Origin: a virus
Taxonomy: Duplodnaviria; Heunggongvirae; Uroviricota; Caudoviricetes
Strand: one strand, 5' to 3'
Length of the DNA: 64,000 bases
IMG/VR virus record: IMGVR_UViG_3300008108_000023
Location: 1 to 64,000 of that record
The notes beneath the pieces are model-generated. The model saw only the letters and a program-made list of their open reading frames with translations. It was not told the origin of the DNA and ran no database searches. The position numbers were made by a program, and so were the translations under genes. This document shows positions 1,485 through 59,322 of the stretch, one piece after another. How positions within the stretch are numbered: position 1 is the first letter of the stretch; each line of letters opens with the position of its first letter.

Positions 1485-1673
1485 TTACTCTGATTTAGTT
1501 TCTATACCGTTTTTCCAATCTTTCCAATTATCAAAATCTTTCAGTTTTTCATAATGGTCATCTTCCATTTTTCTTGCTTCGTTTAGTATATCGTCATAAA
1601 TTCCACTATACCTCGTATCCAATTGAAGTTTGGTGATTAACCAATTTACCGGTGTTAGTTTTTCGTTACTCAT
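1485..1673 (-). CDS. hypothetical protein
   Basis: 62-aa ORF; start overlaps the stop of 1666..2508. Confidence 0.45.
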   Translation of the reverse strand: MSNEKLTPVNWLITKLQLDTRYSGIYDDILNEARKMEDDHYEKLKDFDNWKDWKNGIETKSE

Positions 1674-21453: not shown

Positions 21454-21488
21454 CAAAAAACCCCTCTTTCGAGGGGTTCTTTTTATTT
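21454..21488. terminator. bidirectional rho-independent terminator (CCCCTC-TTTC-GAGGGG flanked by A- and T-runs)
   Basis: G/C hairpin immediately after the stop of 21483..22334, with A-run on one side and T-run on the other. Confidence 0.65.
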
Positions 21489-42126: not shown

Positions 42127-43584
42127 ATGATTACAATAGGTTACAGTACAAGAGAGTCCAACCCAAAATTTCAAGAATATTTAAAAAAAACTTGTGGACA
42201 CCCCAAAGTTCAAGTTATTGAAAAAGTAAACAATGGTGAAAAAAGTCTTTCACAAACTTACAATGAAATTATTCAAGAGTCGATTCATGATATTGTCGTA
42301 CTTTGTCATGATGACATTTACTTTAATACGACTTCGTGGGGTAGAAAATTAGTCAAACATTTTGAAGAATCTGACTACGGGATTCTCGGTGTTGCCGGTA
42401 CAACCAATATTCATGAGAGTGGTAGGTGGTGGACAGATAATACCAAAATGGTTGGTATTGTTAATCATGAAAATGAGGGTAAAAAATGGGAATCGAGATA
42501 TGCAAATGGAATCCCAAATTCAATTCACGAAGTTTGTTTAGTGGATGGTTTATTCATTGGAATCCACAAAAACAGAATAAAACACACTTTTGATGAGTCA
42601 GTACCGGGTTTTCATTTTTATGATATGGTATTCTGTACTAGCAATCACTTAAGTGAGGTAAACATCGGTGTTATATACAACATAAGAATCACTCACAAAT
42701 CAATCGGAATGACCAATGATTCTTGGGAAAAGAATAGGGAATTTTACATTGAAAAATTTAAAGAGAACCTACCAATTAATATAACACCAAAAATTGATTA
42801 TGACATAACCAAACCAAAACAGTTTAAAGATAAATTTAATTTAATAGTTCAAACATCAAACGATAATGAAAATTTAATTCAGTTTTTTGAAAACATAAAA
42901 AAATTACCAGTGTTTGATAGTTTACAGATTTCACTCATCTCGACGGATACCAATATAGACAATATTAGAGAATTTGAATCTGAAAATATTAAAATTTACG
43001 AGGGTTTTTTTGATACATTAAATAAAAACTTATCAGTACTGAAATGGGATGAATCGTTTATGGAATCAAAAACAGATTTGTTATTTTTCAGTAATGATAC
43101 TGTTACCGTATTGAACGACGTTTTCTCAAGTATGTATTCAATATTTAAGAGTGAAAAAAATACTTTTGGGTGCGTCTTTCCTACAGTATTAGAAAACGAC
43201 CGAACAATTTTTTCAAATGGATTGGATATAGTTCAAAACAACGAACAGTTCAATTTAATTTTTAAAAACAAATCATCTTTTTTCAATATTTTACACGGAC
43301 ACTTTCCAAACAATTTTGGTAGTATTAGTGACTTTTTTGCCACTACATCTACAAATTTAAAAATGATTGATTGGTTTGATATTAATTTAGAAACATCAAT
43401 TTATAACTTAGATTTTGCGTTGAAAACTTTACTTAAAAAACGTAAAACATTCATTGACACAAACAGTGTGGTAATGATTGATATGGCATCAAAATTTGAA
43501 AAGGTTGATGTTGAATTAAAACAAGTCTTAGGTCAGTACATAAACTCACCTGAAATTAGAAAAAATATCAAACAATTAAGATGA
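42127..43584 (+). CDS. glycan-operon protein 1 (possible glycosyltransferase)
   Basis: 485-aa first ORF of the plus-strand operon; VLCHDDIYF DxD-like motif; weak. Confidence 0.55.
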   Translation: MITIGYSTRESNPKFQEYLKKTCGHPKVQVIEKVNNGEKSLSQTYNEIIQESIHDIVVLCHDDIYFNTTSWGRKLVKHFEESDYGILGVAGTTNIHESGRWWTDNTKMVGIVNHENEGKKWESRYANGIPNSIHEVCLVDGLFIGIHKNRIKHTFDESVPGFHFYDMVFCTSNHLSEVNIGVIYNIRITHKSIGMTNDSWEKNREFYIEKFKENLPINITPKIDYDITKPKQFKDKFNLIVQTSNDNENLIQFFENIKKLPVFDSLQISLISTDTNIDNIREFESENIKIYEGFFDTLNKNLSVLKWDESFMESKTDLLFFSNDTVTVLNDVFSSMYSIFKSEKNTFGCVFPTVLENDRTIFSNGLDIVQNNEQFNLIFKNKSSFFNILHGHFPNNFGSISDFFATTSTNLKMIDWFDINLETSIYNLDFALKTLLKKRKTFIDTNSVVMIDMASKFEKVDVELKQVLGQYINSPEIRKNIKQLR

Positions 43585-44360
43585 TAAAAATTGTATCGGG
43601 ATTTACAGAAAAAGGTGGTTCTACCACTTTTTTTATAAACTTAACAAATTTCTTAAATGAAAATGGTATTGATTGCACATTTTACGGTAATCAGAATTAC
43701 CATTTAGACAAATGTAAATCAGGGAACATTGAAAAAGATTTAAAGTATGAATCTGATGATATTGTAATTACCCATTTTTTACAACTACAGGAAAGACCAC
43801 CTGTTAAAAAAGTTATTTTGTCTTGTCATGAAAAATGGTGGTTCCCTGTTGGTAAAATTAAACAGTATTGGGACCTGTGCGTGTTTTTACATGAAGAGCA
43901 TCGAAAATATCACTCGGATTACAGGGGTGATTATGTAATAATACCAAACATCAAAGAAAATTTAATTATTTCAAATAAAGAGCTGGTAAGAAATATTGCA
44001 GGAATTATTGGTACAATTGAAGACAGAAAACAGACCCATGTGTCAATACAAAGAGCATTAAAAGACAGGTGTGAAAAAATCTATTTGTTCGGTCACATCG
44101 GTGACCAAAACTATTTTGACAAATTGGTAAAACCTTTAATGAATCCAAGAGTAATTCATTACGGTCACACCACCAATAAACAAGAAATGTACGATATGAT
44201 TGGTAAGGTATATCACTCATCAAAGGGTGAGGTTGCTTGTTTGGTTAAAGATGAATGTTATTTAACCGGTACAGAGTTTTATGGTAATGAAGAGACTATG
44301 AATGAAGTTTCTAAATTAAGTAACGAAGAGATATTAACACTTTGGAAAAACATATTTTAA
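43581..44360 (+). CDS. glycan-operon protein 2
   Basis: 259-aa ORF, ATGA overlap with upstream gene. Confidence 0.5.
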   Translation: MIKIVSGFTEKGGSTTFFINLTNFLNENGIDCTFYGNQNYHLDKCKSGNIEKDLKYESDDIVITHFLQLQERPPVKKVILSCHEKWWFPVGKIKQYWDLCVFLHEEHRKYHSDYRGDYVIIPNIKENLIISNKELVRNIAGIIGTIEDRKQTHVSIQRALKDRCEKIYLFGHIGDQNYFDKLVKPLMNPRVIHYGHTTNKQEMYDMIGKVYHSSKGEVACLVKDECYLTGTEFYGNEETMNEVSKLSNEEILTLWKNIF

Positions 44361-44361
44361 A

Positions 44362-45084
44362 ATGAAGATACACGCACATATACTGTCATGGAATGAAGAA
44401 AAAATATTACCATTCACATTGGATTACTATAGTACAATCTGTGAAAAAATATTCATATACGATAATATGTCAACGGACTCCTCTGATGAGATTTATAAGA
44501 GGTACCCAAAAGTTGAGGTTATTAAATGGGATAGTGGTAATGAAATAAATGAAATTAATTACGTAAACATTAAATCCGAAGAGTATAAAAAAAGAAGTAG
44601 AGGTCAGGGTGTTGATTGGGTTATAGTTTGTGACTGTGATGAGTTTATATACCATGAAAATCTTATGGATAAACTTCAAGAGTACAAAGAAATGGGTATA
44701 ACCGTCCCAAGAATAGACGGTCACGACATGGTTAGTACTGAATTTCCAATATACGACGGTGAATTCATTACAACAAAAATTAAAACAGGTTCACAAACGT
44801 ATGAACCAATGTGTAAAAATATAATTTTTCATCCTGATTTAGATATAAAATACGGCATTGGTGGTCACAGTTTTAATTCTGTTGATGGTAAATTTTCGGA
44901 TGAGCGGGAAATAAAACTTCTTCACTATAAATTCTTGGGTAAAGACTACGTGAAGAACATTTACATTTCAAGAGCAAAGAGATTGTCATCGTTCAATAAA
45001 CAACATAAATTCGGTGAACATTATTTTAATTTACCATTCAATTACATGGACAGCATGTTAAAAGAAAATTATCAAGTTATATGA
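44362..45084 (+). CDS. glycosyltransferase-like (GT-A, DxD)
   Basis: ILSWNEEKILPF...IYDNMSTD...VCDCDEFIYHE resembles Glyco_tranf_2_4-type GT-A proteins. Confidence 0.55.
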   Translation: MKIHAHILSWNEEKILPFTLDYYSTICEKIFIYDNMSTDSSDEIYKRYPKVEVIKWDSGNEINEINYVNIKSEEYKKRSRGQGVDWVIVCDCDEFIYHENLMDKLQEYKEMGITVPRIDGHDMVSTEFPIYDGEFITTKIKTGSQTYEPMCKNIIFHPDLDIKYGIGGHSFNSVDGKFSDEREIKLLHYKFLGKDYVKNIYISRAKRLSSFNKQHKFGEHYFNLPFNYMDSMLKENYQVI

Positions 45085-45902
45085 GGAAAATACTTATATC
45101 GGATTTTACCATTAAAGAAGTACCTCACGGTGGTTCTGAATGGGTGAATCAAGTTTTAATTGATAGATTTAATCTTGAGTTTGAATATTCAAACCAAGTC
45201 AAGTCATTTGATTACAACGCCCTGTATATTATATCAAATATTTCTTTGATGAACCCAAACTTGGTTAATCAAATACAAAATTTGAACTACGTCATTATTG
45301 AAAACGATTATAAAATATGTGCAAGTAGACACCCATGGAGATATACCGACAACATAATTCCGATTGAGGAAAGAACCAACTATTCTCTTTACCGGAATGC
45401 AAAAGCGGTATTTGTTCAAACAACCGACCACATGAACGTTTATCTTAAAAACGATGTTGTTGCTAATTTTATAAATCTGAATAGTTCGATATGGTCAAAT
45501 GAGGACTTAGAATTATTGAGGAATTTAAATAAATCCAACAATGTTAAAAACGACAAATATTCTGTTTACTATACAAATAATTGGATAAAGAACACCCAAG
45601 GTAGTCTGAAGTATTGTTCTGAAAATAAATTACCGGTCCATATTCTTAAAGAATCTAAAGACAGAGTTGAATTTTTAAGTAATATGGCCAAATGTAAAGG
45701 TATTGTGTTTTTCCCGATAGCAAGAGAAACTTTTTGTAGACTGGTTGTTGAGGCAAAATGTTTAGGTTTGGAAGTAATAACGACACAAAATTATGGTGCA
45801 AGTTTAGAAGAATGGTTTAATAGGTTATCAGGTGATGAATTAATTGATTTCTTAGAAACTAACACTTTAAAAAATTTAGAAATCATTTCAACTTATATAT
45901 GA
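45081..45902 (+). CDS. glycan-operon protein 4
   Basis: 273-aa ORF, ATGA overlap at both ends. Confidence 0.5.
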   Translation: MRKILISDFTIKEVPHGGSEWVNQVLIDRFNLEFEYSNQVKSFDYNALYIISNISLMNPNLVNQIQNLNYVIIENDYKICASRHPWRYTDNIIPIEERTNYSLYRNAKAVFVQTTDHMNVYLKNDVVANFINLNSSIWSNEDLELLRNLNKSNNVKNDKYSVYYTNNWIKNTQGSLKYCSENKLPVHILKESKDRVEFLSNMAKCKGIVFFPIARETFCRLVVEAKCLGLEVITTQNYGASLEEWFNRLSGDELIDFLETNTLKNLEIISTYI

Positions 45903-46891
45903 TATTATTTTGTTACGGCACAAGACCTGAGTATATTAAAATAAAAAAATTAATAGAAATGTGTGGGGAAAGTATTCCCCATAAAATTTTATATGTTACC
46001 CAACACAAAGATATTGTATTGGGTGATTTTGATTATAAATTATCCATTGATGATACGTGTGAAAATAGATTGGATAGTATTATGTCATCCGTATTTTTAA
46101 ATTTTAAAAAAGAATTTTTGGAAGGGGTTACACATATACTTATCCAAGGGGACACCGCAACCGCTCTTTCATTATCCCTAATAGGATTACACCATAAAAA
46201 AGAAGTGATTCATTTAGAAGCGGGATTACGGACATATGACTACAATCACCCTTACCCCGAAGAAATGTATCGGCAGTTAATTAGTAGAATTTCAAACTAT
46301 AATCTTTGCCCAACAGAAAGTAACAAGATGAACTTAGAAAATGAAAAAGTTCAGGGTAAAAATTTTGTAGTTGGCAATACCGTATTAGATAATCTTAATA
46401 AAGAAAATATTACATACGAAAATAAAGTCTTAATCACTTTACATAGAAGAGAGAATCATGAGATGATGTCGGAGTGGTTTGATGTTATCAATCGATTAGC
46501 AAAGAATAATCCTGAATTAAAATTCATTCTTCCAATACACCCAAACCCAAACGTCATAAAACACAAACATATATTGACACATGTTGATGTTATTGAACCA
46601 TTAACCCATGATAAATTTATTGAGGAATTCAAATCCTGTAAATTACTAATTTCAGATAGTGGGGGTGTTCAAGAAGAGGCGTCGTTCCTAAATAAGAAAG
46701 TTATTGTATGTAGAGAAAAAACTGAGAGACCTGAGTCCTTGGGTAAAACGTCTTTTATATGTAAAAAACCCATTGACTTAGAAGGTATTTTTTACGATAT
46801 TATTAACGATTTCCAAACAGAATATGATTGTCCTTTTGGTGATGGTAATTCTTGTGAAAGAATCATTGAAATATTTAGAAAAATTGTATGA
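45899..46891 (+). CDS. UDP-N-acetylglucosamine 2-epimerase (WecB/NeuC family)
   Basis: FCYGTRPEYIKI, HLEAGLRTYD, DSGGVQEEA, ERPE and FGDGNSCERI motifs collinear with E. coli WecB. Confidence 0.85.
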   Translation: MILFCYGTRPEYIKIKKLIEMCGESIPHKILYVTQHKDIVLGDFDYKLSIDDTCENRLDSIMSSVFLNFKKEFLEGVTHILIQGDTATALSLSLIGLHHKKEVIHLEAGLRTYDYNHPYPEEMYRQLISRISNYNLCPTESNKMNLENEKVQGKNFVVGNTVLDNLNKENITYENKVLITLHRRENHEMMSEWFDVINRLAKNNPELKFILPIHPNPNVIKHKHILTHVDVIEPLTHDKFIEEFKSCKLLISDSGGVQEEASFLNKKVIVCREKTERPESLGKTSFICKKPIDLEGIFYDIINDFQTEYDCPFGDGNSCERIIEIFRKIV

Positions 46892-47616
46892 GTATAACGG
46901 TAATATTAAATGGGTATAAAAGACCACATGTTCTCCAAAAACAATTGGAATCAATTAGAAATCAAAGTGTCCAACCCGAATCAATTTTATTTTGGCAAAA
47001 TTCTGGTTCTCAATTTGATGAGGGACTAACCAAAGATTTAATTCACGCATCTTGTAATAGTAATTTAGGTGTGTGGGCAAGATTTGCATTTGCTTTAAAT
47101 GCCAACACAGAATATATTTGTGTTTTTGATGATGACACAATACCGGGTAAACTATGGTTAGAAAACTGTCTAAACACCATGAAAATTCAAGAAGGTTTAT
47201 TAGGAACTATCGGTGTAAAATTTCACACAAAAAACTCTTATTGGCCAGCAACAAGAGTCGGTTGGGACCAACCTAACGAAGAAATTGAAAAGGTCGACAT
47301 TGTTGGTCACTCGTGGTTCTTTAAAAGAGAATGGTTATCGATATTTTGGAGAGAATTACCTGAAATCAATCAGAGTAAATTAGTTGGTGAGGATATGCAC
47401 TTTTCATATACATTACAGAAATACGCAAATATCGGAACTTACGTTCCTCCCCATCCTAAAGAAAATAGAGAAATGTGGGGTAGTATACCAGAATATGCAT
47501 GGGAACATGGAACTGATTCCAACGCAATTTCCGTAAATCATTCAAATATGAATTTAATGGGTGAAGTTTACCGTGGGTATGTAAATAAAGGATTTAAGAC
47601 AATATTAAATGATTGA
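46888..47616 (+). CDS. glycosyltransferase-like (DxD)
   Basis: ITVILNGYKRP...IRNQS and FDDDTIPG motifs. Confidence 0.55.
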   Translation: MSITVILNGYKRPHVLQKQLESIRNQSVQPESILFWQNSGSQFDEGLTKDLIHASCNSNLGVWARFAFALNANTEYICVFDDDTIPGKLWLENCLNTMKIQEGLLGTIGVKFHTKNSYWPATRVGWDQPNEEIEKVDIVGHSWFFKREWLSIFWRELPEINQSKLVGEDMHFSYTLQKYANIGTYVPPHPKENREMWGSIPEYAWEHGTDSNAISVNHSNMNLMGEVYRGYVNKGFKTILND

Positions 47617-48328
47617 AAAGTATATTGAAGATTTTAATTCGTTTTGGGAAAAGATAGATAGTCGAACTAACTTTTCTTTTGTTAGATATGCCGATGGTGA
47701 AGTGATGTTAATGAATAATTCACCGATAGAAAAGAATACACAAGCGTATCAAAACGATAAATGGTTTTCGAGTGGGGGACAAACCAAATTAGGTGTGGAT
47801 TTAAATGAATGTATAGGGTTGAACGACCCAAATTTTTATTTTGCAATATCCTCCAAAACTGATAGTATTAGAGACTATAATTTTTTATATGATAGAATAC
47901 AAAATAAATCAAACATTACATTTGCTAACCTATGGATTAACGCAAATTACAAAGAAAATATATCAAGAATAAGAAATATAAATCGAGATGTTGTTTTAAT
48001 TTGTAATGAAAATTGTGATTTAAAAAACATACCATTTAGTGTATCAGAATTTGTACCGTTCCCTAATGATTGTGTAAACTATTGGGAAGAACATAGAGAT
48101 TCGTTTTTAGAAAAAATATACAATGTTTCTTCAAAATATAAAGATACTTTATTTATCGTATGTTGTGGACCAACATCTGCTGTTATCATAAAACATATGT
48201 TTACAAATAATAGTAATAACACTTATATTGATTTTGGTTCCGCATTAGATGTATTCATACATAATAAAATAACTAGACCATACATGTATGAAGGGTCACA
48301 ATATCATAATCACATATCAAAATTTTAA
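47609..48328 (+). CDS. glycan-operon protein 7
   Basis: 239-aa ORF. Confidence 0.5.
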   Translation: MIEKYIEDFNSFWEKIDSRTNFSFVRYADGEVMLMNNSPIEKNTQAYQNDKWFSSGGQTKLGVDLNECIGLNDPNFYFAISSKTDSIRDYNFLYDRIQNKSNITFANLWINANYKENISRIRNINRDVVLICNENCDLKNIPFSVSEFVPFPNDCVNYWEEHRDSFLEKIYNVSSKYKDTLFIVCCGPTSAVIIKHMFTNNSNNTYIDFGSALDVFIHNKITRPYMYEGSQYHNHISKF

Positions 48329-48334
48329 TTCAGT

Positions 48335-48925
48335 ATGAATAATGATTTTTGTGTCATAGTACAAGGACCTTCAGACTACGTTAAAGAATTAAAAAACGCT
48401 TGGACTGGTTATGATTTGATTTGGTCAACATGGCAAGGTGAAGAATCAAAATACGATACTAATGATGTTGTCTTATTCAACAGTATTCCACACGATAGGG
48501 GTGTACAAAATATAGCACTACAAAAAATATCAACTTTGAATGGAATAATGAAAGCCAAAGAAATAGGTTACAACAGAGTCCTTAAATGGAGAAGTGATTT
48601 ACTACCATCTAATGCAAATAGATTAGTTTCCACATTTAAAAAAGAGTGTGTAAATTTTTTGACTTGGCATAATGAAGGAAAATATTTTGTTGATTATTTT
48701 GTGGAGGGTGAAATAGATACGGTGTTTGATATTTGGAATGTATCTACCATACACGATGAGTATTCGGAAAAAATAATCACGGAAAATATAATATCACTTA
48801 ACTATAAAAATATAAACTTTATGGGTGGCGAATTAAGTAATGATAATGAAATTTTTTGGTTAAAACGAAATATTAATTTGTCCACATATAAAGACGCACC
48901 ATGTTATAGTATGGTGGTGATTTAA
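48335..48925 (+). CDS. glycan-operon protein 8
   Basis: 196-aa ORF. Confidence 0.5.
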   Translation: MNNDFCVIVQGPSDYVKELKNAWTGYDLIWSTWQGEESKYDTNDVVLFNSIPHDRGVQNIALQKISTLNGIMKAKEIGYNRVLKWRSDLLPSNANRLVSTFKKECVNFLTWHNEGKYFVDYFVEGEIDTVFDIWNVSTIHDEYSEKIITENIISLNYKNINFMGGELSNDNEIFWLKRNINLSTYKDAPCYSMVVI

Positions 48926-48936
48926 AAATTATAAAA

Positions 48937-49671
48937 ATGATAGATAATTCAAAATTTATTGACGACGCATTTACTCAAGATGAATTAAATAGGGGTGCCT
49001 TTACCGATTTGAATGGTAGATGTCCATTATGGACAACAAAAATGATTAATGTTATAAAAGATAAAATTGACTTTAATGATGTCAACACAATATTAGATAT
49101 TGGGTCAAGAGATGGTTGCCAAAGTTTAGAGTTAAATAGATGGTTTCCACATGCTAAAATATATGCGTTTGAACCAGTAAAAGAAAACTACGAATTTACA
49201 GTTAAGAACGTTGAGAAAATTAATAACATAAAAGTTTACCAATACGCAATAAACAATTACAACGGTAAAACTAAATTTTACGAAGTTTATAATGGAAATG
49301 TGGGTGCCAGTTCTTTATTACAGACAACAAACCACTGGCGTTCATCTCAGTGGGCCCAAAAGGAAACTGAGGTTGACTGTATTGTTCTTAGTGATTGGTT
49401 AAAAGAAAATGATATTAAAAGTGTTGATTTGATTTGGATGGATGTTCAAGGTGCAGAAAATATCGTATTAGACTCTCTAAAAGAATATTTAAATGATGTA
49501 AAAATAATAACCACCGAAGTAGGGTTACAGGAATTATATCGTGGTTCTACAAGTAAATCTGAACTAGATGAAAAACTAAATAGGTTTATACCAATAGACG
49601 AGTCGCCAGAATCTTCAAACACAGAAATGGATGTGGTTTATATCAACAAAAATTTAACACCTTATGGATAA
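48937..49671 (+). CDS. FkbM-family SAM-dependent methyltransferase
   Basis: LDIGSRDGCQSLEL...IYAFEPVKENYEF...NGNVGASSL matches the FkbM domain. Confidence 0.7.
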   Translation: MIDNSKFIDDAFTQDELNRGAFTDLNGRCPLWTTKMINVIKDKIDFNDVNTILDIGSRDGCQSLELNRWFPHAKIYAFEPVKENYEFTVKNVEKINNIKVYQYAINNYNGKTKFYEVYNGNVGASSLLQTTNHWRSSQWAQKETEVDCIVLSDWLKENDIKSVDLIWMDVQGAENIVLDSLKEYLNDVKIITTEVGLQELYRGSTSKSELDEKLNRFIPIDESPESSNTEMDVVYINKNLTPYG

Positions 49672-50365
49672 TAAAATTTGTTACGTTACTTATACAAATT
49701 CAAAATGTTCAGATATTTTGGATATGTTCTTGTTAGAACAAAAAAAGTACACAAACTTACCGATGTATTTTATTACAGATGTAATGATACCCGAGCAAAT
49801 TTGTTTTTTATATGAAAATCAAGAACCTTATTATGAATCATGGTTAAAGTGTTTATCTTCAATACCATATGACTATTTTATATACTTACAAGAAGACTTT
49901 ATTCTTTATAACAATGTCAGTCATGATAAAATTTTTAATTACCTCGATTTTTTACATGATAACCAAGAATATTCGTTCATTAGATTGTTAAAATCGGGGT
50001 CTGTTAAAGATAAAAAAATTTATGAGACCTTATATGAAATAGAATCCGACAATAAAGATATATTTTCTATGCAACCAACTATTTGGAAAAAAGATGATTA
50101 CATTAAAATCATGAAAGGTACCAAAAATAATATGTGGTTAGAGAATGAAACATATAGAAATTTTATGATAGAAAACAACATCAAAGGTTTATATCATTAC
50201 GATGGTGAAAACAAAAGGGGGTTGAATCATTTTGATAGTTCTGTTTATCCATATATAGCAACGGCTTTAGTTAGAGGTAAATGGAATTTATCTGAATACC
50301 CTAATGAACTCTCTCCATTAATAAATGAATATGAAATAAACGTAAATGTTCGGGGGATACATTAA
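49664..50365 (+). CDS. glycan-operon protein 10
   Basis: 233-aa ORF. Confidence 0.5.
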   Translation: MDNKICYVTYTNSKCSDILDMFLLEQKKYTNLPMYFITDVMIPEQICFLYENQEPYYESWLKCLSSIPYDYFIYLQEDFILYNNVSHDKIFNYLDFLHDNQEYSFIRLLKSGSVKDKKIYETLYEIESDNKDIFSMQPTIWKKDDYIKIMKGTKNNMWLENETYRNFMIENNIKGLYHYDGENKRGLNHFDSSVYPYIATALVRGKWNLSEYPNELSPLINEYEINVNVRGIH

Positions 50366-50367
50366 TA

Positions 50368-51042
50368 ATGAAAATTGTTCTATCTTTTTACACCAACAAT
50401 AAATTTAGTAACACCGTTCAAAAATTAATCGGATATTATAATTCACGTGGTTTCAATGATATCCGAGGATTTAAATCTGAAGATGTTAAGAAAGGTATTT
50501 TTTATGAAAACCATAAAGAAATATTAGATTGTGAAACGGGTGATGGATTTTGGTTGTGGAAACCAAAAATTATTTTAGATATTTTGAATGAATTAGAAGA
50601 TGGGGATGCATTAATTTATACCGATGCCGGTGATTTAGTTGATGTTGATTATAATACGATTGCAAATTATTTGAAAGATAATGATTATTATTTTACAAAT
50701 TGGAATGGAAATCGTTGGCCTCAAAAAATATGTACAAAAAGAGACTGTTTTATCTTGATGGATTGTGATGAAGAAAAGTTTCATGAAACACCACAGATGG
50801 AAGCAGGATTTATCATCATTAAAAAAACCAAACAAATGATGGAATTTGTTCACGATTATTTTAAGTATTGTAGTATTAAACAGATAGTTGACAATGAACC
50901 AAATCAAATTGGTGAGAATTTTCCAAATTGGCAATTCCATAGAAATGACCAAAGTATATTAACTAACTTGGTTGTGAAACATAATTTAAAATTTGATTAT
51001 TGTCTCGATTATAGAATAAAATACAACGTATATATACCATGA
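50368..51042 (+). CDS. glycan-operon protein 11 (possible glycosyltransferase)
   Basis: 224-aa ORF; DGFWLWKP and YTDAGD motifs; weak. Confidence 0.5.
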   Translation: MKIVLSFYTNNKFSNTVQKLIGYYNSRGFNDIRGFKSEDVKKGIFYENHKEILDCETGDGFWLWKPKIILDILNELEDGDALIYTDAGDLVDVDYNTIANYLKDNDYYFTNWNGNRWPQKICTKRDCFILMDCDEEKFHETPQMEAGFIIIKKTKQMMEFVHDYFKYCSIKQIVDNEPNQIGENFPNWQFHRNDQSILTNLVVKHNLKFDYCLDYRIKYNVYIP

Positions 51043-51800
51043 AATTTATTGCATTAAATTATAATTATGACTTAAATAAAATGTCCCAAATCGGTCGGAA
51101 ATGGGCGTTTGATGTCTACAAAAATAAAGAGTTTATATCTGATTATTCATCAGCATCTTATGCTTCATTTATTGATAAGAATAGAAAAAGTATTTTACAT
51201 CTTTATACTGATGATGTTGAGGGTATGAAAGAAAAAATGAACAAGTATAACATTGACCAAGACAGAATTATTTATATTGATTACACGGAACAACTTACCA
51301 AATACAATGAAAGTCTTAATTATAGTTTTACAGTTTTAAATGATTTTATTAATTATGCAAAATCAGAAACTGAGTACACTGTAAAAATCGATAATGATTT
51401 ATTTTTTCATTCGGAATTACCACAAATTGATGATAATTCTATTATGGTTTGGAAGTATGAAAGAATCGTTAGGAATGGTGACCCGAGATGGGGTGAAATA
51501 AAAATATGTAAACAGGTTACAAATGATTTAGATTTTAAAATTTATAATTTAGGTATTTTTGGGTTGCCCGCGGATTACAATATTCACCAAGCAAAAAAAA
51601 TTATGGAAGATATGATATCGGTAGACATTTCAGATGTGACTGATACAGACTCGAAGATTTATCATTGTTGTGAGCAAACGGCAAATAATTGGATTTTTCA
51701 CAAAGAAAATTATAACGTGATTGAAACGTATAATTATGTTGACCACCTGTTTGATAGAAAAGGTGATTGTATAGAATTATCAAAATATCTTTTAAAATGA
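51039..51800 (+). CDS. glycan-operon protein 12
   Basis: 253-aa ORF. Confidence 0.5.
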   Translation: MKFIALNYNYDLNKMSQIGRKWAFDVYKNKEFISDYSSASYASFIDKNRKSILHLYTDDVEGMKEKMNKYNIDQDRIIYIDYTEQLTKYNESLNYSFTVLNDFINYAKSETEYTVKIDNDLFFHSELPQIDDNSIMVWKYERIVRNGDPRWGEIKICKQVTNDLDFKIYNLGIFGLPADYNIHQAKKIMEDMISVDISDVTDTDSKIYHCCEQTANNWIFHKENYNVIETYNYVDHLFDRKGDCIELSKYLLK

Positions 51801-52564
51801 AAACATCAGTAGTATTGACAATTCACAACAAGGAATTCTTAATGAACCAAGTGGTGAGTAACTTGGTAAATAATTTATCAGAACTGAATGACCAGATTGT
51901 AATAGTTTTTGATGGTTGTACAGATAATAGTGAAGGTATTGTTCGTGACAATTTAAAGAGAGTTAGTAATAAAAAAATTGATTACCTGTATGCCGACAAT
52001 GTTTTTGAAACCAAAGCAAATAATATTGGTCTAAAGTCTGTTATAAATGATTATGTGGTCTTAATCCAAGATGATATGGTTGTCACAGAAAAAGATTTTG
52101 ATAAGAGGATGTTGGAACCGTTCATAAAATATAGTGATGTGTTCGCTGTAACATCTTTTGTTGCTCACAATAACATCTATAATGAACAAACAAAACAAAT
52201 AAATTACATCGATATTGCACATAAAGATAACTCATCAAGAGATATTTTTTATGCTAGAGAATATGGTAACAGAGGTCCACTAATGTACAACTATAATGAC
52301 GTGGTCAAATTAAATTTTTTAGACGAATATTTTTCACCCCAAAATTATGATGATATGGATATGTCCATGAGAGCATTCAAAGAACTCGGAAAAGTGTCAG
52401 GTTTATATACGATAGATTATATTTCCGAACCTGGATGGGGGACCACTAGACAAAAAAATCAATCATTACATAATAATTTAGTTTACGTAAACGCAGCAAA
52501 AATACTTGAAAAACACAGGGATTTATTGTATAATAAAGACAAATATAAAGAGGATAGAGAATGA
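51797..52564 (+). CDS. family-2 glycosyltransferase
   Basis: MKTSVVLTIHNKE... GT2 N-terminus and LIQDDMV DxD; start chosen at the ATGA overlap (51797) rather than ORF-track 51767. Confidence 0.65.
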   Translation: MKTSVVLTIHNKEFLMNQVVSNLVNNLSELNDQIVIVFDGCTDNSEGIVRDNLKRVSNKKIDYLYADNVFETKANNIGLKSVINDYVVLIQDDMVVTEKDFDKRMLEPFIKYSDVFAVTSFVAHNNIYNEQTKQINYIDIAHKDNSSRDIFYAREYGNRGPLMYNYNDVVKLNFLDEYFSPQNYDDMDMSMRAFKELGKVSGLYTIDYISEPGWGTTRQKNQSLHNNLVYVNAAKILEKHRDLLYNKDKYKEDRE

Positions 52565-53178
52565 ATAATATAGAGCTAAAGACATTTATGATTAATCATA
52601 ATGTTAATATCCATGGTGTGATTCACGTTGGTGCACATTTTGGTCAAGAAGATGAAGTTTATAAGGAATTGGGTATTTCAAACAGAATATACTTTGAACC
52701 TCTATCGTCTAATTTTGAGACCTTAAAAGAAAAAATAGATGATGACGCAATTTTAGTTAAACTGGCGTTAGGTAATGAAAAGAGAAAAGTTTCTATGTTT
52801 GTAGAATCCTTTAATAAAGGTATGTCATCCTCAATATTAGAACCGAAATTACATTCTGTTCAATTTCCTCATATCGTTTTTGATTCTGTAGAAGAAGTTG
52901 AAATGGATAGATTGGATGATTTAAATTACGATTTTTCAAAATACAACATGATGAATATCGATGTTCAAGGTTTTGAATTAGAGGTTCTCAAAGGTTCCGT
53001 GAATACATTAATCAACATTGACTACGTTATTGTAGAAATAAACAGAGCCGAATTATATAAAGGTTGTCCACACTTTGATGAAATAAACAATTGGATGACA
53101 CATCATGGGTTTACCTGTGTTGAACAATTTTGGTGGGGTAATAATTTTGGTGAGGGATTTTTTAAAAAAATAAAATGA
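52561..53178 (+). CDS. FkbM-family SAM-dependent methyltransferase
   Basis: IHVGAHFGQEDEVY...IYFEPLSSNFETL...GMSSSI matches the FkbM domain. Confidence 0.65.
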   Translation: MNNIELKTFMINHNVNIHGVIHVGAHFGQEDEVYKELGISNRIYFEPLSSNFETLKEKIDDDAILVKLALGNEKRKVSMFVESFNKGMSSSILEPKLHSVQFPHIVFDSVEEVEMDRLDDLNYDFSKYNMMNIDVQGFELEVLKGSVNTLINIDYVIVEINRAELYKGCPHFDEINNWMTHHGFTCVEQFWWGNNFGEGFFKKIK

Positions 53179-54236
53179 AACGAGTATTAGTATTGGGTGG
53201 TGGCGGATTTATTGGTGGTCACCTAGCAAAAAGATTAAAAAATGAAGGAAACTACGTAAGAGTAGTTGATATAAAAAGACACGAATATTTTGATGAGAAA
53301 GACTTTTGTGACGAATTCTTAATATATGACCTTACGGACCCAAAAAACGTATCATCAGTAATGAGATTAGAAGAATTAAATGGTACGATATTACCGTTTA
53401 ATTATTACAAACAACCATATTCAACTGAGGTCCCATTTGATGAGGTTTATCAATTAGCTGCCGATATGGGTGGTGCTGGTTACATCTTCACTGGTGAAAA
53501 TGACGCGAATGTTATGCACAATTCTGCAATGATAAATTTAAATGTTGTAAATGAATCAGTGAAGACAAAAGTTAAGAAGATTTTTTATTCATCATCGGCA
53601 TGTATGTATCCTGAACACAATCAATTAGACCCTAACAACCCAAATTGTGAAGAATCATCAGCATATCCCGCGAATCCTGATTCAGAATATGGTTGGGAAA
53701 AACTTTTTTCGGAAAGGTTGTACTTGGCTTTTCACAGAAATCACGGTTTGGATGTTCGAATTGCTAGATTTCATAACATATTTGGTCCATATGGTACGTG
53801 GAAAGGTGGTAAAGAAAAAGCACCAGCAGCTATGTGTAGAAAAGTTGCCGAAATGTTAGACGGTGGAGAAATTGAAGTTTGGGGTGATGGTCAACAGACT
53901 CGTTCATTCTTATATGTGGATGAATGTGTTGAAGCGGTTTTAAGACTAATGAGACAAGACTCTTTTTTGGGTCCTGTAAACATTGGTTCTGAAGAGAAAG
54001 TAACAATTAATGATTTGGCTCAAATGGCTATAGATATTTCAGGTAAAGAAATTTATATCAGAAATATTGGTGGGGAAGAATTTAAACAGAAGTATGGATA
54101 TAAATGTCCTGTTGGTGTGAGGGGAAGAAATTCAGACAATAAATTATACCACGAAAAAATAGGTTGGGTTGTTAGTGAACCTCTGTTCTATGGAATGGAA
54201 AAAACCTATAAATGGATTAATAGTTTAGTTAAATAA
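53175..54236 (+). CDS. GDP-mannose 3,5-epimerase-like NAD-dependent epimerase (SDR)
   Basis: GGGGFIGGHL Rossmann motif; SSSACMYPE, RFHNIFGPYGTWKGGKEKAPAAMCRK, WGDGQQTRSF, VDECVEAVLRL, PVNIGSEEKV and GVRGRNSDN blocks closely parallel plant GME (as recalled). Confidence 0.8.
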   Translation: MKRVLVLGGGGFIGGHLAKRLKNEGNYVRVVDIKRHEYFDEKDFCDEFLIYDLTDPKNVSSVMRLEELNGTILPFNYYKQPYSTEVPFDEVYQLAADMGGAGYIFTGENDANVMHNSAMINLNVVNESVKTKVKKIFYSSSACMYPEHNQLDPNNPNCEESSAYPANPDSEYGWEKLFSERLYLAFHRNHGLDVRIARFHNIFGPYGTWKGGKEKAPAAMCRKVAEMLDGGEIEVWGDGQQTRSFLYVDECVEAVLRLMRQDSFLGPVNIGSEEKVTINDLAQMAIDISGKEIYIRNIGGEEFKQKYGYKCPVGVRGRNSDNKLYHEKIGWVVSEPLFYGMEKTYKWINSLVK

Positions 54237-54268
54237 AAAAGGGGGTTATTGACCCCCTTCTTTTTTTT
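54235..54268. terminator. strong bidirectional terminator (AAGGGGGT-TATTG-ACCCCCTT + T9)
   Basis: Perfect 8-bp G/C stem between the converging epimerase gene and the minus-strand glutaredoxin-like gene, flanked by A6 and T9. Confidence 0.75.
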
Positions 54269-54539
54269 CAATGTATTTTAATATAATTGCTAACGCCTCG
54301 TCGTCCCCATTAAAATCTTTTTCGGGACAAAAAAAGGGTCCTTTACCAGTGTCGTCTTTTTTAATGTAAAAGGCGGGTAAATATTCATTACCCGTTTGTT
54401 CAATTACTTTATTCCAAATCTCTTTATTCTTACCAACTTCAACTTCTCGGTAAGGTAATGATTCTTTTTGGAGTCTCTCTTTTAATCTTTTACAACCTCC
54501 ACAACCCTCAAGTGTAAATAGAAGTAATTCATTCGCCAT
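54246..54539 (-). CDS. glutaredoxin/NrdH-like redoxin (CGGC)
   Basis: LFTLEGCGGCKRLKERL: CxxC in thioredoxin-fold context, 97 aa. Confidence 0.5.
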   Translation of the reverse strand: MANELLLFTLEGCGGCKRLKERLQKESLPYREVEVGKNKEIWNKVIEQTGNEYLPAFYIKKDDTGKGPFFCPEKDFNGDDEALAIILKYIEKKEGGQ

Positions 54540-54540
54540 A

Positions 54541-54846
54541 TTATAAAGTGTTTAATATTTCTTTGTAAAAAGAATCGGGTCTAACACCTGATGTTCTTGA
54601 TACTTCGTTATTACCATTAAATATCATTACCGTTGGTACTGAACGTACCCCATATTCTTGAGAACCTGACATTTCAGAATCAACATTAACCTTGACGAAT
54701 TTAACATCAGGGTATTCGTGTTGTAGTAAATCTAATTTTGGTAATAACATTTTACATGGTCCACACCATTCAGCGTAAAAGTCGGCAAGAACTTTCTCAC
54801 CGTTTTGTTTCATTTCATTTAGTTTTTCAACTGTTACTAATTCCAT
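54541..54846 (-). CDS. trxA: thioredoxin
   Basis: Canonical WCGPC active site (FYAEWCGPCKM); 101 aa. Confidence 0.8.
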   Translation of the reverse strand: MELVTVEKLNEMKQNGEKVLADFYAEWCGPCKMLLPKLDLLQHEYPDVKFVKVNVDSEMSGSQEYGVRSVPTVMIFNGNNEVSRTSGVRPDSFYKEILNTL

Positions 54847-54858
54847 TTTTCTTTAATT

Positions 54859-55926
54859 TTAAAATCCTATTTGTTTTTTATTTTCAACTCGAACCACGTC
54901 TTCATCGATATTATAAATATCCGCAAGTGTAGTTGGTTTATCAACTGTTTTTTTCTTACCTAAGTGTTTTAATAATTTGTTAGATTCTTCAACACTTAGA
55001 GGTTCAAATTTATGTTCACAAATTAATCTACCCTTTCTCAGTAGGGCTTGGTCAATTTTTTCTTTTTTCATATTGAAGGTAGCAACGATTTGAATATTCA
55101 AACAATCCCCAAGAATACCATCTGTTATGTTTAATATATTAGAAACACCAACAGAAGAACCGTTTAATTCTCTATCTGAAATTACTTTCTCGGCATCTTC
55201 AATAATCAGAATAGAGTTTTTATGTTCCATCAAGAATGGAATAATTGAGGGTTCTGAAAGAGATTCGGCCATAGATGGTGGAATAAATAGTATCTCTTTA
55301 TCGACAATCAATCTTGTAAGGTACTTTATATACGAAGTTTTGCCCGTGCCGGGGTCTCCATGAAATAACACAATACCTTTATCATTTTTCTTGTTCAGTC
55401 GAGTGACAATAGTATCGTGTAGTTTTACAAACTTATCACCGTAATTTAATTTTATGTCAACATCAGGTACATTTAATTCATATTCCTCGGTGTCCATATG
55501 ACCATGTTCAGATTTTACTAAACTAATACCACTCTTTTTTAATTCAAACTCAAATCCTGATATTTTTTTCAAATCAAAATTTGTATCAAATATACCATGA
55601 GATAATGTGTAATAAAATTCTAACTCAAATAATAATTCTTCTTTTTCATATTTTGATTTTAATAATATTGCAGTTTTATTATTATCATTAAGAAGAAAAA
55701 TTTCTGTATTTGGTTTATGTACTCTTCTTTTAGAGGTTGAATTTAATTCACATATAGGTCTATATCCATCTGATATGAAATAATCCATTACATCTGATGT
55801 ATACACCTTCTCCGTCTTATAAACAGATGGTATTTCATCAAAGGTGTGAAGATACAATTGATTCGTTGGTACGTCGGTACCATACGATGTTTCATAAATA
55901 AAATATTGGTCTGGTGTTTTTCTCAT
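54859..55926 (-). CDS. AAA+ ATPase
   Basis: Walker A GDPGTGKT, Walker B ILIIEDAEK; C-terminal ATPase module after a roughly 170-aa N-domain. Confidence 0.75.
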   Translation of the reverse strand: MRKTPDQYFIYETSYGTDVPTNQLYLHTFDEIPSVYKTEKVYTSDVMDYFISDGYRPICELNSTSKRRVHKPNTEIFLLNDNNKTAILLKSKYEKEELLFELEFYYTLSHGIFDTNFDLKKISGFEFELKKSGISLVKSEHGHMDTEEYELNVPDVDIKLNYGDKFVKLHDTIVTRLNKKNDKGIVLFHGDPGTGKTSYIKYLTRLIVDKEILFIPPSMAESLSEPSIIPFLMEHKNSILIIEDAEKVISDRELNGSSVGVSNILNITDGILGDCLNIQIVATFNMKKEKIDQALLRKGRLICEHKFEPLSVEESNKLLKHLGKKKTVDKPTTLADIYNIDEDVVRVENKKQIGF

Positions 55927-56220: not shown

Positions 56221-57111
56221 TTAATAATTCATAATCAGTAATTCAATACCTTCGTTTTGTGTTCCGTCTTTTTTAGCGGCAGCCGCCTTTTTGAAAGTTT
56301 CTTTAGCCCATTTGTAACCAGTTGGTTGAAACATCAAAAGTTGTCCATTTTTACCAATACCAACACCATTTTCGGGGAACCAATCATGAAGTTGTTTAAA
56401 CTCATAATAAGATAAACTAAATTTACCTTGTATACCCTTTAATGTGTTTGCCAACCTTTCATGGTCATTACTATCAAAATCATGATTTGAATAATAATTT
56501 TCTGTTTTCCAATAAGGGGGGTCCATGTAAAAATATGTTTTTGGCGAATCATACTTTTCAACAACTTTTTGGAAATCCATGTTTTCGACAAACGTGATTC
56601 TATCTAAATGTGCTCTATATTCAGGATGTTTGAGTTTGTCCATAAAGATTAACACCTTACATCTGTACTTACCCTTGTAATCAGTATAACTAGAAGTTTC
56701 GGGTTTGGAACCTGAGAAAACTTGAGTTAATACGTAAACGTATTTTGCGGCAACATCAAAATTGGGCTCATCCCCAATGACTAATTCTTCGTTGAATACT
56801 TCTTTTTGGTATGTACGGAACATTTGTTCATATTCAGGTGGGGTGTTTTCCACACCTAATTGTTGACATGGGTATTTCGCGAGTTCATCCCATAACCTAT
56901 CGTAATGTTTAGCACATTTAAAAAGGTTTGCGTTCAATCGATTAAAGTCATTGTAAACGACTGTTTTGAGATTGGGGTATTTCTTTAGGTCCATATTAAA
57001 AAAGACCCAAAACATACCCGAAAACCCCTCCACGTAGGTTTCAATATCATTAGGTATGAACGGAACAATCCACTTACCTATTCTAGCTTTTCCTCCAATG
57101 TAAGATATCAT
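56221..57111 (-). CDS. Dam-like N6-adenine DNA methyltransferase (D12 class, DPPY)
   Basis: N-terminal YIGGKARIGKWI (AdoMet motif) and MDPPYW catalytic motif. Confidence 0.8.
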   Translation of the reverse strand: MISYIGGKARIGKWIVPFIPNDIETYVEGFSGMFWVFFNMDLKKYPNLKTVVYNDFNRLNANLFKCAKHYDRLWDELAKYPCQQLGVENTPPEYEQMFRTYQKEVFNEELVIGDEPNFDVAAKYVYVLTQVFSGSKPETSSYTDYKGKYRCKVLIFMDKLKHPEYRAHLDRITFVENMDFQKVVEKYDSPKTYFYMDPPYWKTENYYSNHDFDSNDHERLANTLKGIQGKFSLSYYEFKQLHDWFPENGVGIGKNGQLLMFQPTGYKWAKETFKKAAAAKKDGTQNEGIELLIMNY

Positions 57112-58967: not shown

Positions 58968-59150
58968 TTATATTATTAAAAATGTTATTATGTAAGAAAC
59001 CGCAAGATAAAACAAAACAGATTCTATTTTGGTCAACTTTAATATTGAGGGTTGTTCTGAGAAGAATTTTATCAAAAATTCAACACAGAACCTTAGTACG
59101 TAAATGGTACTCAATACCATCAAAAAAATAAAGATATAATTAATCATCAT
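58968..59150 (-). CDS. small 2-TM membrane protein
   Basis: 60-aa hydrophobic ORF. Confidence 0.4.
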   Translation of the reverse strand: MMINYIFIFLMVLSTIYVLRFCVEFLIKFFSEQPSILKLTKIESVLFYLAVSYIITFLII

Positions 59151-59322
59151 GTTTTTTTATTTCTTGTAATAGTTCTTTTCTATAAAGAGGAATTAACTCT
59201 TTTATTTCTTGAGCATATTTTCTAGCTCGAATAGATGCACTTCTATTACCCTTTTCGAATACCTTGGTGGTATCAACAGACATTTTTTCCACCAAGTCTT
59301 TGATTTGTTTAAGTGTGTCCAT
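59140..59322 (-). CDS. histone H1-like (Hc1-type) DNA-binding protein
   Basis: FEKGNRSASIRARKYAQEIKEL matches the KGNKAAGxRxRK core of Bacteroidota-type histone H1-like proteins. Confidence 0.55.
   Translation of the reverse strand: MDTLKQIKDLVEKMSVDTTKVFEKGNRSASIRARKYAQEIKELIPLYRKELLQEIKKHDD

Follow-up and report, generated by a model that had tools for sequence, protein, structure and literature searches.

In plants, GDP-mannose 3,5-epimerase (GME, or GM35E) belongs to the ascorbate and cell-wall pathway, and the structures of the Arabidopsis enzyme (AtGME; 2c59, 2c54, 2c5a and 2c5e) and of Myrciaria dubia GME (8sg0) have the extended-SDR fold in common. GMER/Fcl and GalE belong to the same extended-SDR superfamily and CEP1 epimerase family and also proceed through transient oxidation at C4. 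GMER uses a His as base, a Lys to tune the catalytic Cys and a reduction by NADPH, whereas GM35E has a Lys base and an Arg for tuning, and GalE is without the extra acid/base pair (PMC8787198). The first bacterial GM35E to be characterized, in 2019, was MfGM35E from the thermoacidophilic Verrucomicrobium Methylacidiphilum fumariolicum, for which 50.5% identity and a Man:L-Gal:L-Gul product ratio of 80:15:5 were reported; its proposed role is in surface-polysaccharide or natural-product glycan synthesis, not in ascorbate synthesis (PMC6678494). Phage-encoded like the gene described here are the GMEs of T4-like cyanophages (S-SCSM1 ORF123, S-SSM7 SSSM7_253, S-CAM9, P-TIM68 and S-SCSM2R), which likewise have nucleotide-sugar enzymes, glycosyltransferases and methyltransferases clustered around them. 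S-SCSM1 ORF123 was named as a GME in 2022 (PMC9602691). We found no enzyme assay of any phage GME in the literature.

The gene studied here lies in a window of 64,000 nucleotides, positions 1 to 64,000 of the Caudoviricetes record IMGVR_UViG_3300008108_000023 (IMG/VR). The original prediction, made from the letters of the DNA, had read an ORF at 53175-54236 as a GME homolog with five collinear sequence blocks, placed in a phage-like operon for a glycan. The ORF is genuine, with its exact start and stop recovered (ATG at 53175, stop codon ending at 54236), all five blocks are present in the translation, and alignment to AtGME 2c59 bears out their collinearity; the genome is that of a phage and the operon is one of glycan synthesis. 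The features of the gene are as follows, with AtGME numbering in brackets and residue roles as given in the GM35E review (PMC8787198).

53175..54236, + strand: GME ORF, GDP-mannose 3,5-epimerase (GM35E/GME) homolog, 353 aa, extended SDR
53196..53216, + strand: NAD-binding glycine motif G8-x-x-G11-x-x-G14 (GGGGFIG), aligned to GAGGFIA of AtGME
53589..53615, + strand: SSSACMYPE block with triad Ser141 (At S143) and catalytic acid Cys143 (At C145), invariant in 164 aligned sequences
53688..53702, + strand: YGWEK with catalytic Tyr172 and Lys176 (At Y174/K178), invariant in 164 sequences
53766..53843, + strand: block with Asn201 (At N203) and catalytic base Lys215 (At K217), invariant in 164 sequences
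53880..53909, + strand: WGDGQQTRSF with Arg243 (At R243), a diphosphate contact, invariant in the alignment
54114..54140, + strand: GVRGRNSDN with Arg318 (At R306), which acidifies the catalytic Cys, invariant in the alignment

The five blocks of the window protein are SSSACMYPE (aa 139-147), RFHNIFGPYGTWKGGKEKAPAAMCRK (aa 198-223), WGDGQQTRSF (aa 236-245), VDECVEAVLRL (aa 248-258) and GVRGRNSDN (aa 314-322), and their counterparts in 2c59, in the same order, are ASSACIYPE, RFHNIYGPFGTWKGGREKAPAAFCRK, WGDGLQTRSF, IDECVEGVLRL and GVRGRNSDN. The two proteins have an identical triad and Cys/Lys pair, together with equivalents of Arg306, Arg243 and Asn203. They differ in the glycine motif (GxxGxxG in the window protein, GxxGxxA in AtGME) and in length, the window protein having shorter N- and C-terminal extensions (353 aa against the 379-aa AtGME chain) and three insertions, of about 22 aa (60-87), 11 aa (301-311) and 2 aa. 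Either form of the glycine motif agrees with the GxxGxxG/A reported for GM35E (PMC6678494).

Judged by its sequence, the window protein is a member of the GM35E/GME clade. In a phmmer search of PDB sequences, GME structures scored 286-298 bits (E=1e-87 to 4e-84; AtGME 295-298, Myrciaria GME 286), with AtGME 2c59 as the best match (E=1.3e-87, 298 bits), and every other SDR family, among them UXS, GalE, Fcl and the dTDP-glucose dehydratase RmlB, reached at most 80 bits. We looked in particular for a best match to GalE or dTDP-glucose dehydratase, the outcome that the original prediction had named as counting against it, and none was seen (295-298 bits for AtGME against 80 or fewer). The pairwise blastp comparison with Arabidopsis GME that it had proposed gave E=2e-101 over 345 columns, the identity being 44% across all of them and 50% when gapped columns are left out; both searches put the similarity far outside what chance would produce. 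Pfam PF01370 also matched (E=1e-40), and a Foldseek search with an AF2 model ranked the GME entries 2c5a/2c59 first. This model, a monomer of moderate quality built from a shallow 12-sequence alignment, has a pLDDT of 72, active-site loops below 50 and a TM score of 0.6 to 2c59; it served only to rank folds. An identical protein is already public under the automated JGI name GDP-D-mannose 3',5'-epimerase (IMG).

The NCBIfam search of the window protein yielded no GME assignment, the collection apparently being without a GM35E model. Its top match was to Fcl, model NF047922 (E=1.5e-29), and there is a match to Pfam GDP_Man_Dehyd as well, as would be expected if the protein were a GDP-L-fucose synthase (GMER/Fcl, a 3,5-epimerase-4-reductase) or a nucleotide-sugar 4,6-dehydratase. 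Such an identity is very improbable: NF047922 yields 103 bits where its cut-off asks for 500, for which reason we reject this top match as evidence, and the dTDP-glucose dehydratase model TIGR01181 reaches 67.5 bits against 365. Lys215 in place of His and Arg318 in place of Lys form the GM35E signature rather than that of GMER, and a GDP-mannose 4,6-dehydratase to feed an Fcl is absent from the operon. A GalE-like UDP-glucose/UDP-hexose 4-epimerase is equally improbable. Depositors do name the cyanophage genes that are 55-58% identical to ours "UDP-glucose 4-epimerase", and the Pfam Epimerase family is common to both enzymes, yet such misannotation of GM35E is common (PMC8787198). The galE model TIGR01179 gives 57 bits where its cut-off is 262, the best GME structure outscores those of the GalE family by 298 bits to about 70, and the additional Cys/Lys acid-base pair, missing from GalE, is present in the window protein; together these effectively refute the GalE identity.

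The active-site residues point in the same direction. The extended-SDR Rossmann fold and the N-terminal GxxGxxG/A NAD+ motif are both present, the [ST]xnYx3K triad is complete (S141, Y172, K176), and the Cys acid and Lys base for the C3/C5 epimerisations are there as C143 and K215, accompanied by the Cys-acidifying R318, the diphosphate-binding R243 and the conserved N201. None of the eight GM35E-defining residues varies when the window protein is aligned with 81 viral homologs, 80 bacterial homologs and AtGME, so that the original reading as a GME homolog holds on residues as well as on scores. Hundreds of genomes carry homologs that are 61-96% identical, which speaks for purifying selection on the gene. 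We propose, with a probability of about 0.82, that the product of the ORF is a functional GDP-mannose 3,5-epimerase, dependent on NAD+, that supplies an L-hexose donor to a phage glycan operon. Its substrate and products we infer from the characterized enzymes of plants and Methylacidiphilum, to which it is homologous.

Beyond these shared residues, the window protein carries two insertions of some length relative to AtGME.

53352..53435, + strand: insertion 1, long form of the variable beta3-beta4 loop, aa 60-87, net gain about 22 aa over AtGME
54075..54107, + strand: insertion 2, EEFKQKYGYKC, aa 301-311, 11 aa that plant GME lacks in the alignment

The extra segment that had been predicted at about residues 60-90 is thus real, and corresponds to aa 60-87; insertion 2 and a third insertion of 2 aa at aa 106-107 had been overlooked. 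In insertion 1, 28 residues stand opposite 6 AtGME residues in the alignment; the segment bears the motif [LI]xPF[SN]YxK[QH]P[YF], and the AF2 model gives it a pLDDT of about 94 and places beta strands at residues 65-68 and 84-86. The variable loop at this site occurs in three length classes in the phage/Bacteroidota clade, and S-SSM7 GME has a short loop there. By alignment, then, insertion 1 is one of these loop length classes and no peculiarity of the window gene. The long form is found in 19 of 80 viral loci and in 1 of 80 genome loci, and its near confinement to viruses is the sole mildly unusual trait of the gene. Insertion 2 recurs in 79 of 80 viral homologs and in 48 of 80 bacterial ones, which makes it a trait of the clade.

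It has to be considered whether these insertions alter what the enzyme makes. The 28-aa segment with insertion 1 lies near the NAD-binding region and could change enzyme properties, and a GME-clade enzyme of shifted specificity might carry out C5-only epimerisation favouring GDP-L-gulose, or act on another GDP-sugar (GDP-heptose, GDP-6-deoxyhexose), in which case the operon's L-sugar would not be L-galactose. Identity to any assayed GM35E is only 44-50%, and BlmG and similar bacterial GME homologs have been proposed as suppliers of L-gulose rather than L-galactose (PMC6678494). We nevertheless regard a shifted specificity as unlikely, because the acid/base pair for both epimerisations and the eight defining residues are invariant, insertion 2 is found in the majority of members from bacteria and viruses, insertion 1 is missing from near-identical alleles (P0009, of 332 aa, for example), and MfGM35E, which is similarly diverged, yields the canonical product ratio (PMC6678494). 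Also unlikely, to a similar degree, is that the nearly virus-only long insertion is a virus-specific adaptation, for example for docking to a glycosyltransferase or to the assembling virion so that GDP-L-Gal/L-Gul is channelled into a methylated glycan of the phage particle; were it so, this would be the first bacteriophage virion glycan with L-galactose or L-gulose. Our preferred reading remains a canonical GDP-mannose 3,5-epimerase. Both the window protein and MfGM35E are of the prokaryote type and lie at a similar distance from plant enzymes, with about 50% identity (the MfGM35E figure being the published one). Whereas MfGM35E comes from a Verrucomicrobium, the nearest cellular relatives of the window protein are in Bacteroidota, at 70-76% identity by tblastn and about 79-80% over ungapped columns.

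Whereas plant GME serves ascorbate and cell-wall synthesis, the window gene stands in a phage glycan operon, of which the following features were recovered.

42127..54236, + strand: glycan operon, 15 genes, 12 kb, GME last
42127, 44362, 46888 and 51767, + strand: four GT2-type glycosyltransferases, Pfam matches above curated cut-off
45899-46891, + strand: WecB-type UDP-GlcNAc 2-epimerase
47609, + strand: weak GT-D-like match, below threshold
48937, + strand: FkbM methyltransferase
52561..53178, + strand: FkbM-family methyltransferase (Pfam PF05050, E=1e-16), its stop overlapping the GME start (ATGA)
54239..54269, + strand: hairpin resembling an intrinsic terminator, 3 nt past the GME stop (stem of 9 bp, 5 of them G-C, followed by a T-run)

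GME is therefore the final, translationally coupled gene of the operon; the hairpin behind it overlaps the 3' end of a convergent glutaredoxin gene. Six operon proteins had no family match in Pfam or NCBIfam and gave only noise against PDB sequences at E<=1. The same operon occurs on JGI contig L001, with diverged copies on L083, L100 and L136. FkbM genes are found in the GME cluster at 26 of 80 viral loci and are directly adjacent to GME only in this phage lineage, and on this basis we reject a dedicated GME-methyltransferase module. When 12 kb of the window was compared with cultured phages at the nucleotide level, only a 153-nt thymidylate-synthase stretch matched, so the phage has no close cultured relative; the window's helicase is closest to those of Bacteroides, Chryseobacterium and Flavobacterium phages. 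The cyanophages represent another lineage, probably with a host in another phylum, and the S-SCSM1 cluster has GMD, Fcl and fucosyltransferases that the window operon does not.

We propose that the enzyme would act as follows. GDP-D-mannose would most likely be drawn from the host pool; genes for its supply (ManA/B/C) were absent among the approximately 45 window ORFs scanned, which leaves the substrate to the host. C4 would be oxidised via tightly bound NAD+ and the Ser141/Tyr172/Lys176 triad, C5 and C3 would be epimerised with Cys143 as acid, Lys215 as base and Arg318 tuning the Cys, and C4 would then be re-reduced. The resulting L-hexose donor would feed the operon, where a neighbouring transferase presumably uses it and would in doing so pull an unfavourable equilibrium forward. 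The WecB-type epimerase would contribute UDP-ManNAc, and a methylated heteroglycan would be assembled in the cytoplasm of the infected cell. That this glycan contains L-galactose or L-gulose, as originally suggested, is a plausible and reasonable inference; none of the operon's glycosyltransferases could be assigned a donor, and a GDP-L-Gal-using one was not identifiable among them.

Where the glycan is attached is a more delicate matter. The operon may remodel a lipid-linked surface polysaccharide of the host (LPS, O-antigen or capsule) during infection rather than the virion, and we give this possibility real weight at somewhat less than even odds. UDP-ManNAc, the product of WecB, is a common surface-glycan precursor. 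Cyanophage "LPS / cell-wall" clusters are also usually credited with such remodelling of the host surface, the cyanophage literature places GME in cell-wall synthesis or modification (e.g. PMC9602691), and bacterial GME homologs adjoin Bac_transf priming transferases (present at 26 of 80 bacterial loci) and DegT aminotransferases, as is typical of surface-polysaccharide loci. Against this, the 15-gene operon holds no priming transferase, flippase or polymerase, and no TM-like segment was found in any of its 15 proteins. Soluble viral sets of glycosyltransferases and methyltransferases have precedent in chloroviruses, whose capsid proteins are glycosylated by virus-encoded enzymes that are all soluble, and mycobacteriophage virions also carry glycosylation. 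Because the operon lacks a membrane protein, we lean slightly toward phage virion proteins as the acceptor.

The original prediction was mistaken on one point, namely the supposed rarity of GME beyond plants and algae. Public proteins include more than 8000 homologs, at least 596 loci occur in IMG/VR viral contigs, and 311 confirmed loci, stemming from just two narrow peptide patterns, occur in GTDB bacterial and archaeal species genomes, chiefly of Bacteroidota and Alphaproteobacteria. Among 216 cultured-phage records, the top-scoring matches are at GME level and belong to T4-like cyanophages, with about 57% identity (55-58%, full-length) and mostly the label "UDP-glucose 4-epimerase". Both the enzyme family as such and its occurrence in bacteria and phages are already documented, and the discovery value of this gene is small. 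The residue fingerprint would, however, correct the labels of GME in dozens of cultured cyanophage genomes, where it is called "UDP-glucose 4-epimerase" or a generic epimerase. GME is evidently among the commoner sugar-nucleotide genes of aquatic phages, and glycans with L-galactose or L-gulose may for that reason be a widespread and unstudied part of phage infection. The phage and Bacteroidota GMEs also form a large natural library for the biocatalytic production of L-sugars, the aim that motivated the MfGM35E work (PMC6678494).

A GT11 fucosyltransferase-family gene keeps company with GME in 27 of 80 viral loci, and GT11 is a plausible user of GDP-L-Gal by analogy with GDP-L-Fuc; fucosyltransferase-catalysed L-galactosylation is named in the title of a 1997 paper cited in the GM35E review (PMC8787198). 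The window operon itself holds neither a GT11-like protein nor an HxRRxD motif. In viral loci more generally, GME often adjoins either a PhoH gene or a gene of the GT11 family.

The open reading frame runs on the plus strand of the window from an ATG at 53175 to a stop codon ending at 54236 and encodes a product of 353 amino acids, here called the window protein. The five peptide blocks on which the original prediction of a GDP-mannose 3,5-epimerase (GME, or GM35E) rested are all found in this translation (residues 139–147, 198–223, 236–245, 248–258 and 314–322), and they lie in the same order as in plant GME, collinear in the phmmer alignment. When all PDB chains are searched with phmmer, the top matches are four entries of the Arabidopsis thaliana enzyme (AtGME; 2c59 and variants; E = 1.3e-87 to 8.8e-87, 295–298 bits), with Myrciaria dubia GME next (8sg0, at 286 bits). 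No other family exceeds 80 bits, the score of UDP-xylose synthase; structures of the GalE-like, GDP-fucose synthase and dTDP-glucose dehydratase families fall below it. The best matches are GME structures rather than members of the GalE or RmlB families, as expected of a GME homolog. In pairwise blastp the window protein and AtGME are identical in 44% of 345 columns (E = 2e-101); over the 301 ungapped columns the figure is 50%. An AlphaFold2 model is of moderate quality (pLDDT 72) because the underlying alignment is shallow; its best Foldseek matches are GME crystal structures. In an NCBIfam scan of the window protein no model scored above its cut-off: GDP-L-fucose synthase (Fcl, or GMER), the best match, reached 103 bits against a cut-off of 500, dTDP-glucose dehydratase 67 against 365, and galE 57 against 262.

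A review of GM35E (PMC8787198) names the features that set it apart from its SDR neighbours: a Gly motif, a Ser/Tyr/Lys triad (S143, Y174 and K178 in AtGME), a catalytic acid that is Cys (C145), a base that is Lys (K217) where GMER uses His, a Cys-acidifying residue that is Arg (R306) where GMER has Lys, R243 as the diphosphate contact, and a conserved Asn, N203. In an alignment of the window protein, 81 viral and 80 bacterial homologs, and the residues of AtGME taken from the phmmer alignment, the eight GM35E-defining positions, which in the window protein are S141, C143, Y172, K176, N201, K215, R243 and R318, show no variation (164/164 aligned sequences). By every sequence criterion tested, the window protein is a GM35E.

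The gene is a real, intact and correctly recognised GM35E, but an ordinary one, belonging to a known and abundant kind. The assertion that GME homologs are seldom found beyond plants and algae proved wrong. Public homologs number at least 8000, each at E ≤ 1e-20, and identity to the window protein is 74% or higher in each of the 120 best clusters; IMG/VR holds at least 596 loci. A scan of GTDB, using one genome per species and two narrow peptide patterns only, confirmed 311 loci. The best 80 of these (61–76% identity) belong mainly to Bacteroidota (Flavobacteriales, Chryseobacterium, Kaistella, Maribacter, Saprospiraceae, Chitinophagaceae) and Alphaproteobacteria (Sphingomonadales, Rhodobacterales), with Marinimicrobia and Margulisbacteria in smaller share. 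Matches occur in 216 cultured-phage records, the top ones being T4-like cyanophages at 55–58% identity over the full length (S-SSM7, S-CAM9, S-T4, P-TIM68, S-SCSM2R and others). The S-SSM7 homolog, the only cultured-cyanophage GME aligned, carries the full residue signature. Nearly all of the best cyanophage homologs are labelled 'UDP-glucose 4-epimerase' or generically; other labels include 'NAD-dependent dehydratase' and 'nucleotide-sugar epimerase' (records H1–H30, e.g. NC_015287.1 200671–201726, which is L002 7992–9047).

A protein identical to the window protein is already public on 34 contigs, the longest of 288 kb, under the JGI name 'GDP-D-mannose 3',5'-epimerase'. In 2019 the GM35E of the bacterium Methylacidiphilum was characterized and showed the canonical 80:15:5 equilibrium; BlmG and the A201A pathway are also treated in that paper (PMC6678494). 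ORF123 of cyanophage S-SCSM1 has been explicitly named GDP-mannose-3,5-epimerase (PMC9602691). The automated name was already the right one, and published phage precedents exist. What interest is left concerns a long loop largely restricted to viruses, the L-sugar glycan apparently made by aquatic phages, and the widespread misannotation in cyanophages.

The predicted extra insertion near residues 60–90 is borne out by the AtGME alignment: residues 60–87 (insertion 1) form a stretch of 28 residues versus 6 in the plant enzyme. Further insertions comprise 11 residues at 301–311 (insertion 2) and 2 residues at 106–107. Insertion 2, found in 79 of 80 viral and 48 of 80 bacterial homologs, is a clade trait. 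The loop at insertion 1 varies in length and falls into three classes: a short one resembling that of plants (13 residues over the segment measured), a medium one (24) and a long one (34–39). The long form occurs in 19 of 80 viral loci but in just one of the 80 genome loci, on a 1.1-kb MAG contig; the medium form is found in true chromosomes as well, among them that of Maribacter halichondriae, whose genome is complete. The long loop contains a conserved motif, [LI]xPF[SN]YxK[QH]P[YF], and is predicted to form short beta strands (pLDDT ~94). In a neighbour-joining tree built without indel columns, the long-loop and medium-loop forms cluster, and the window protein falls in an all-viral group of nine nested in a mixed clade of 72 viral and Bacteroidota sequences. 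A natural allele of 332 amino acids (P0009) is 92% identical to the window protein over aligned positions, with the differences concentrated at residues 49–88, where its loop is short. Since this allele is near-identical yet short-looped, insertion 1 is dispensable for the fold and was recently exchanged.

The phage setting originally proposed holds, given PHROG matches that include a DNA helicase and thymidylate synthase and given related IMG/VR contigs. A GME 95% identical to that of the window lies on a 171-kb IMG/VR contig (L083), and the locus recurs across many metagenomes. Two DNA methyltransferases, which flank the glycan operon, and peptidoglycan hydrolase domains are also encoded. 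The features discussed here are:

1666–2508, minus strand: ABC_membrane_3 match (ABC transporter transmembrane region), away from the operon
6832–7569, minus strand: further GT2 glycosyltransferase, adjacent to a calcineurin-like phosphoesterase, away from the operon
21483–22334, minus strand: SPFH/Band 7 protein, away from the operon
35307–36632, minus strand: thymidylate synthase, 441 aa
40679–41533, minus strand: N6_N4_Mtase family enzyme
42127–54236, plus strand: 15-gene block (glycan operon)
54246–54539, minus strand: glutaredoxin
54541–54846, minus strand: thioredoxin
54859–55926, minus strand: AAA ATPase
56221–57111, minus strand: Dam-like D12-class N6-adenine methyltransferase
approx. 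59140–59322 (15966–16148 on L001, a JGI contig with the same operon), minus strand: 60-aa ORF with a precomputed Pfam match to Hc1 (PF07432)

The 12 kb of the window searched against cultured phages yielded no close nucleotide relative; the sole match, 153 nt at 92% to Flavobacterium phage immuto, lies inside the thymidylate synthase ORF. That product seems long for its family, and its PHROG match, spanning residues 2–350 versus only 246 profile positions, suggests an internal insertion. The host is likely a member of the Bacteroidota, because phages of Bacteroides, Chryseobacterium and Flavobacterium carry the closest helicases and because, among the best 80 of the 311 GTDB loci, the nearest cellular GMEs come from Bacteroidota. 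Matches to a sigma-70-like promoter between 41400 and 54700 are at chance level (80 versus 81); such a result would fit a host with a non-sigma-70 promoter consensus, such as Bacteroidota. The match to Hc1, the chlamydial histone H1-like protein, makes the 60-aa product look like a small DNA-binding protein, unusual for a phage.

GME is the last gene of the plus-strand block, which lies within a mostly minus-strand region and with which GC skew flips sign. Its start overlaps the stop codon of the upstream methyltransferase (ATGA), and 3 nt past its own stop begins a terminator-like hairpin, 9 bp long and rich in G+C, with a T-run after it. The glutaredoxin, thioredoxin and ATPase genes form a tight head-to-tail array convergent with the operon, and the 3' end of the glutaredoxin gene overlaps this hairpin. 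Terminator-like hairpins are in roughly threefold excess between 41400 and 54700 (16 versus 5.2 ± 2.5 in shuffles). The operon encodes four GT2-type glycosyltransferases above curated Pfam cut-offs, one more weak, sub-threshold GT-D-like match, two FkbM-family methyltransferases and a WecB-type non-hydrolysing UDP-GlcNAc 2-epimerase (209.9 bits, essentially at the TIGR00236 cut-off of 210.15); family searches with six of its proteins detected no family. Most of its genes have diverged copies (roughly 35–76% protein identity) on at least two other IMG/VR contigs (L100 and L136), and a third, L118, has part of the set, so that the whole operon, not GME alone, is conserved across phage lineages.

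By homology, we propose that the enzyme would take host GDP-D-mannose, oxidize it at C4 on bound NAD+, epimerize C5 and C3, re-reduce the intermediate, and release GDP-L-galactose with some GDP-L-gulose. No genes for GDP-mannose supply were found among the ~45 window ORFs scanned. The equilibrium of GM35E favours GDP-mannose (PMC6678494), and a consuming transferase is therefore needed; several operon transferases are candidate consumers of the L-hexose donor. The end product would be a methylated heteroglycan with ManNAc-derived and L-hexose residues.

Gene neighbours of GME elsewhere fit the picture of an L-hexose donor. A GT11 (fucosyltransferase-family) gene, of which a search of the window operon found none, accompanies GME in 27 of 80 viral loci, ~2.3 kb upstream; GDP-L-galactose is an analogue of GDP-L-fucose. 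In bacterial loci, Bac_transf priming transferases (26 of 80 loci) and DegT aminotransferases occur with GME, which identifies those loci as surface-polysaccharide clusters. FkbM and GME share a cluster in 26 of 80 viral loci and are directly adjacent only in the window's phage lineage.

None of the 15 operon proteins has a TM-like hydrophobic segment; the operon therefore lacks a priming phosphoglycosyl transferase, flippase and polymerase. That every product is soluble speaks slightly for a direct attachment of the glycan to phage proteins. There are precedents: chlorovirus capsid glycans are made by virus-encoded soluble glycosyltransferase and methyltransferase proteins, and mycobacteriophage virions are glycosylated. 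The cyanophage literature instead assumes modification of the host cell wall or LPS (PMC9602691), a destination that is here slightly the less probable of the two.

A PhoH-like ATPase gene lies 3' of GME in 51 of the 80 viral loci (L083–L162; e.g. L132 11468–12217), immediately after it (within 150 bp) in 31 of those 51, with a conserved series of phage genes beyond. The GME–PhoH arrangement marks a large, distinct phage clade with GME in a fixed position.
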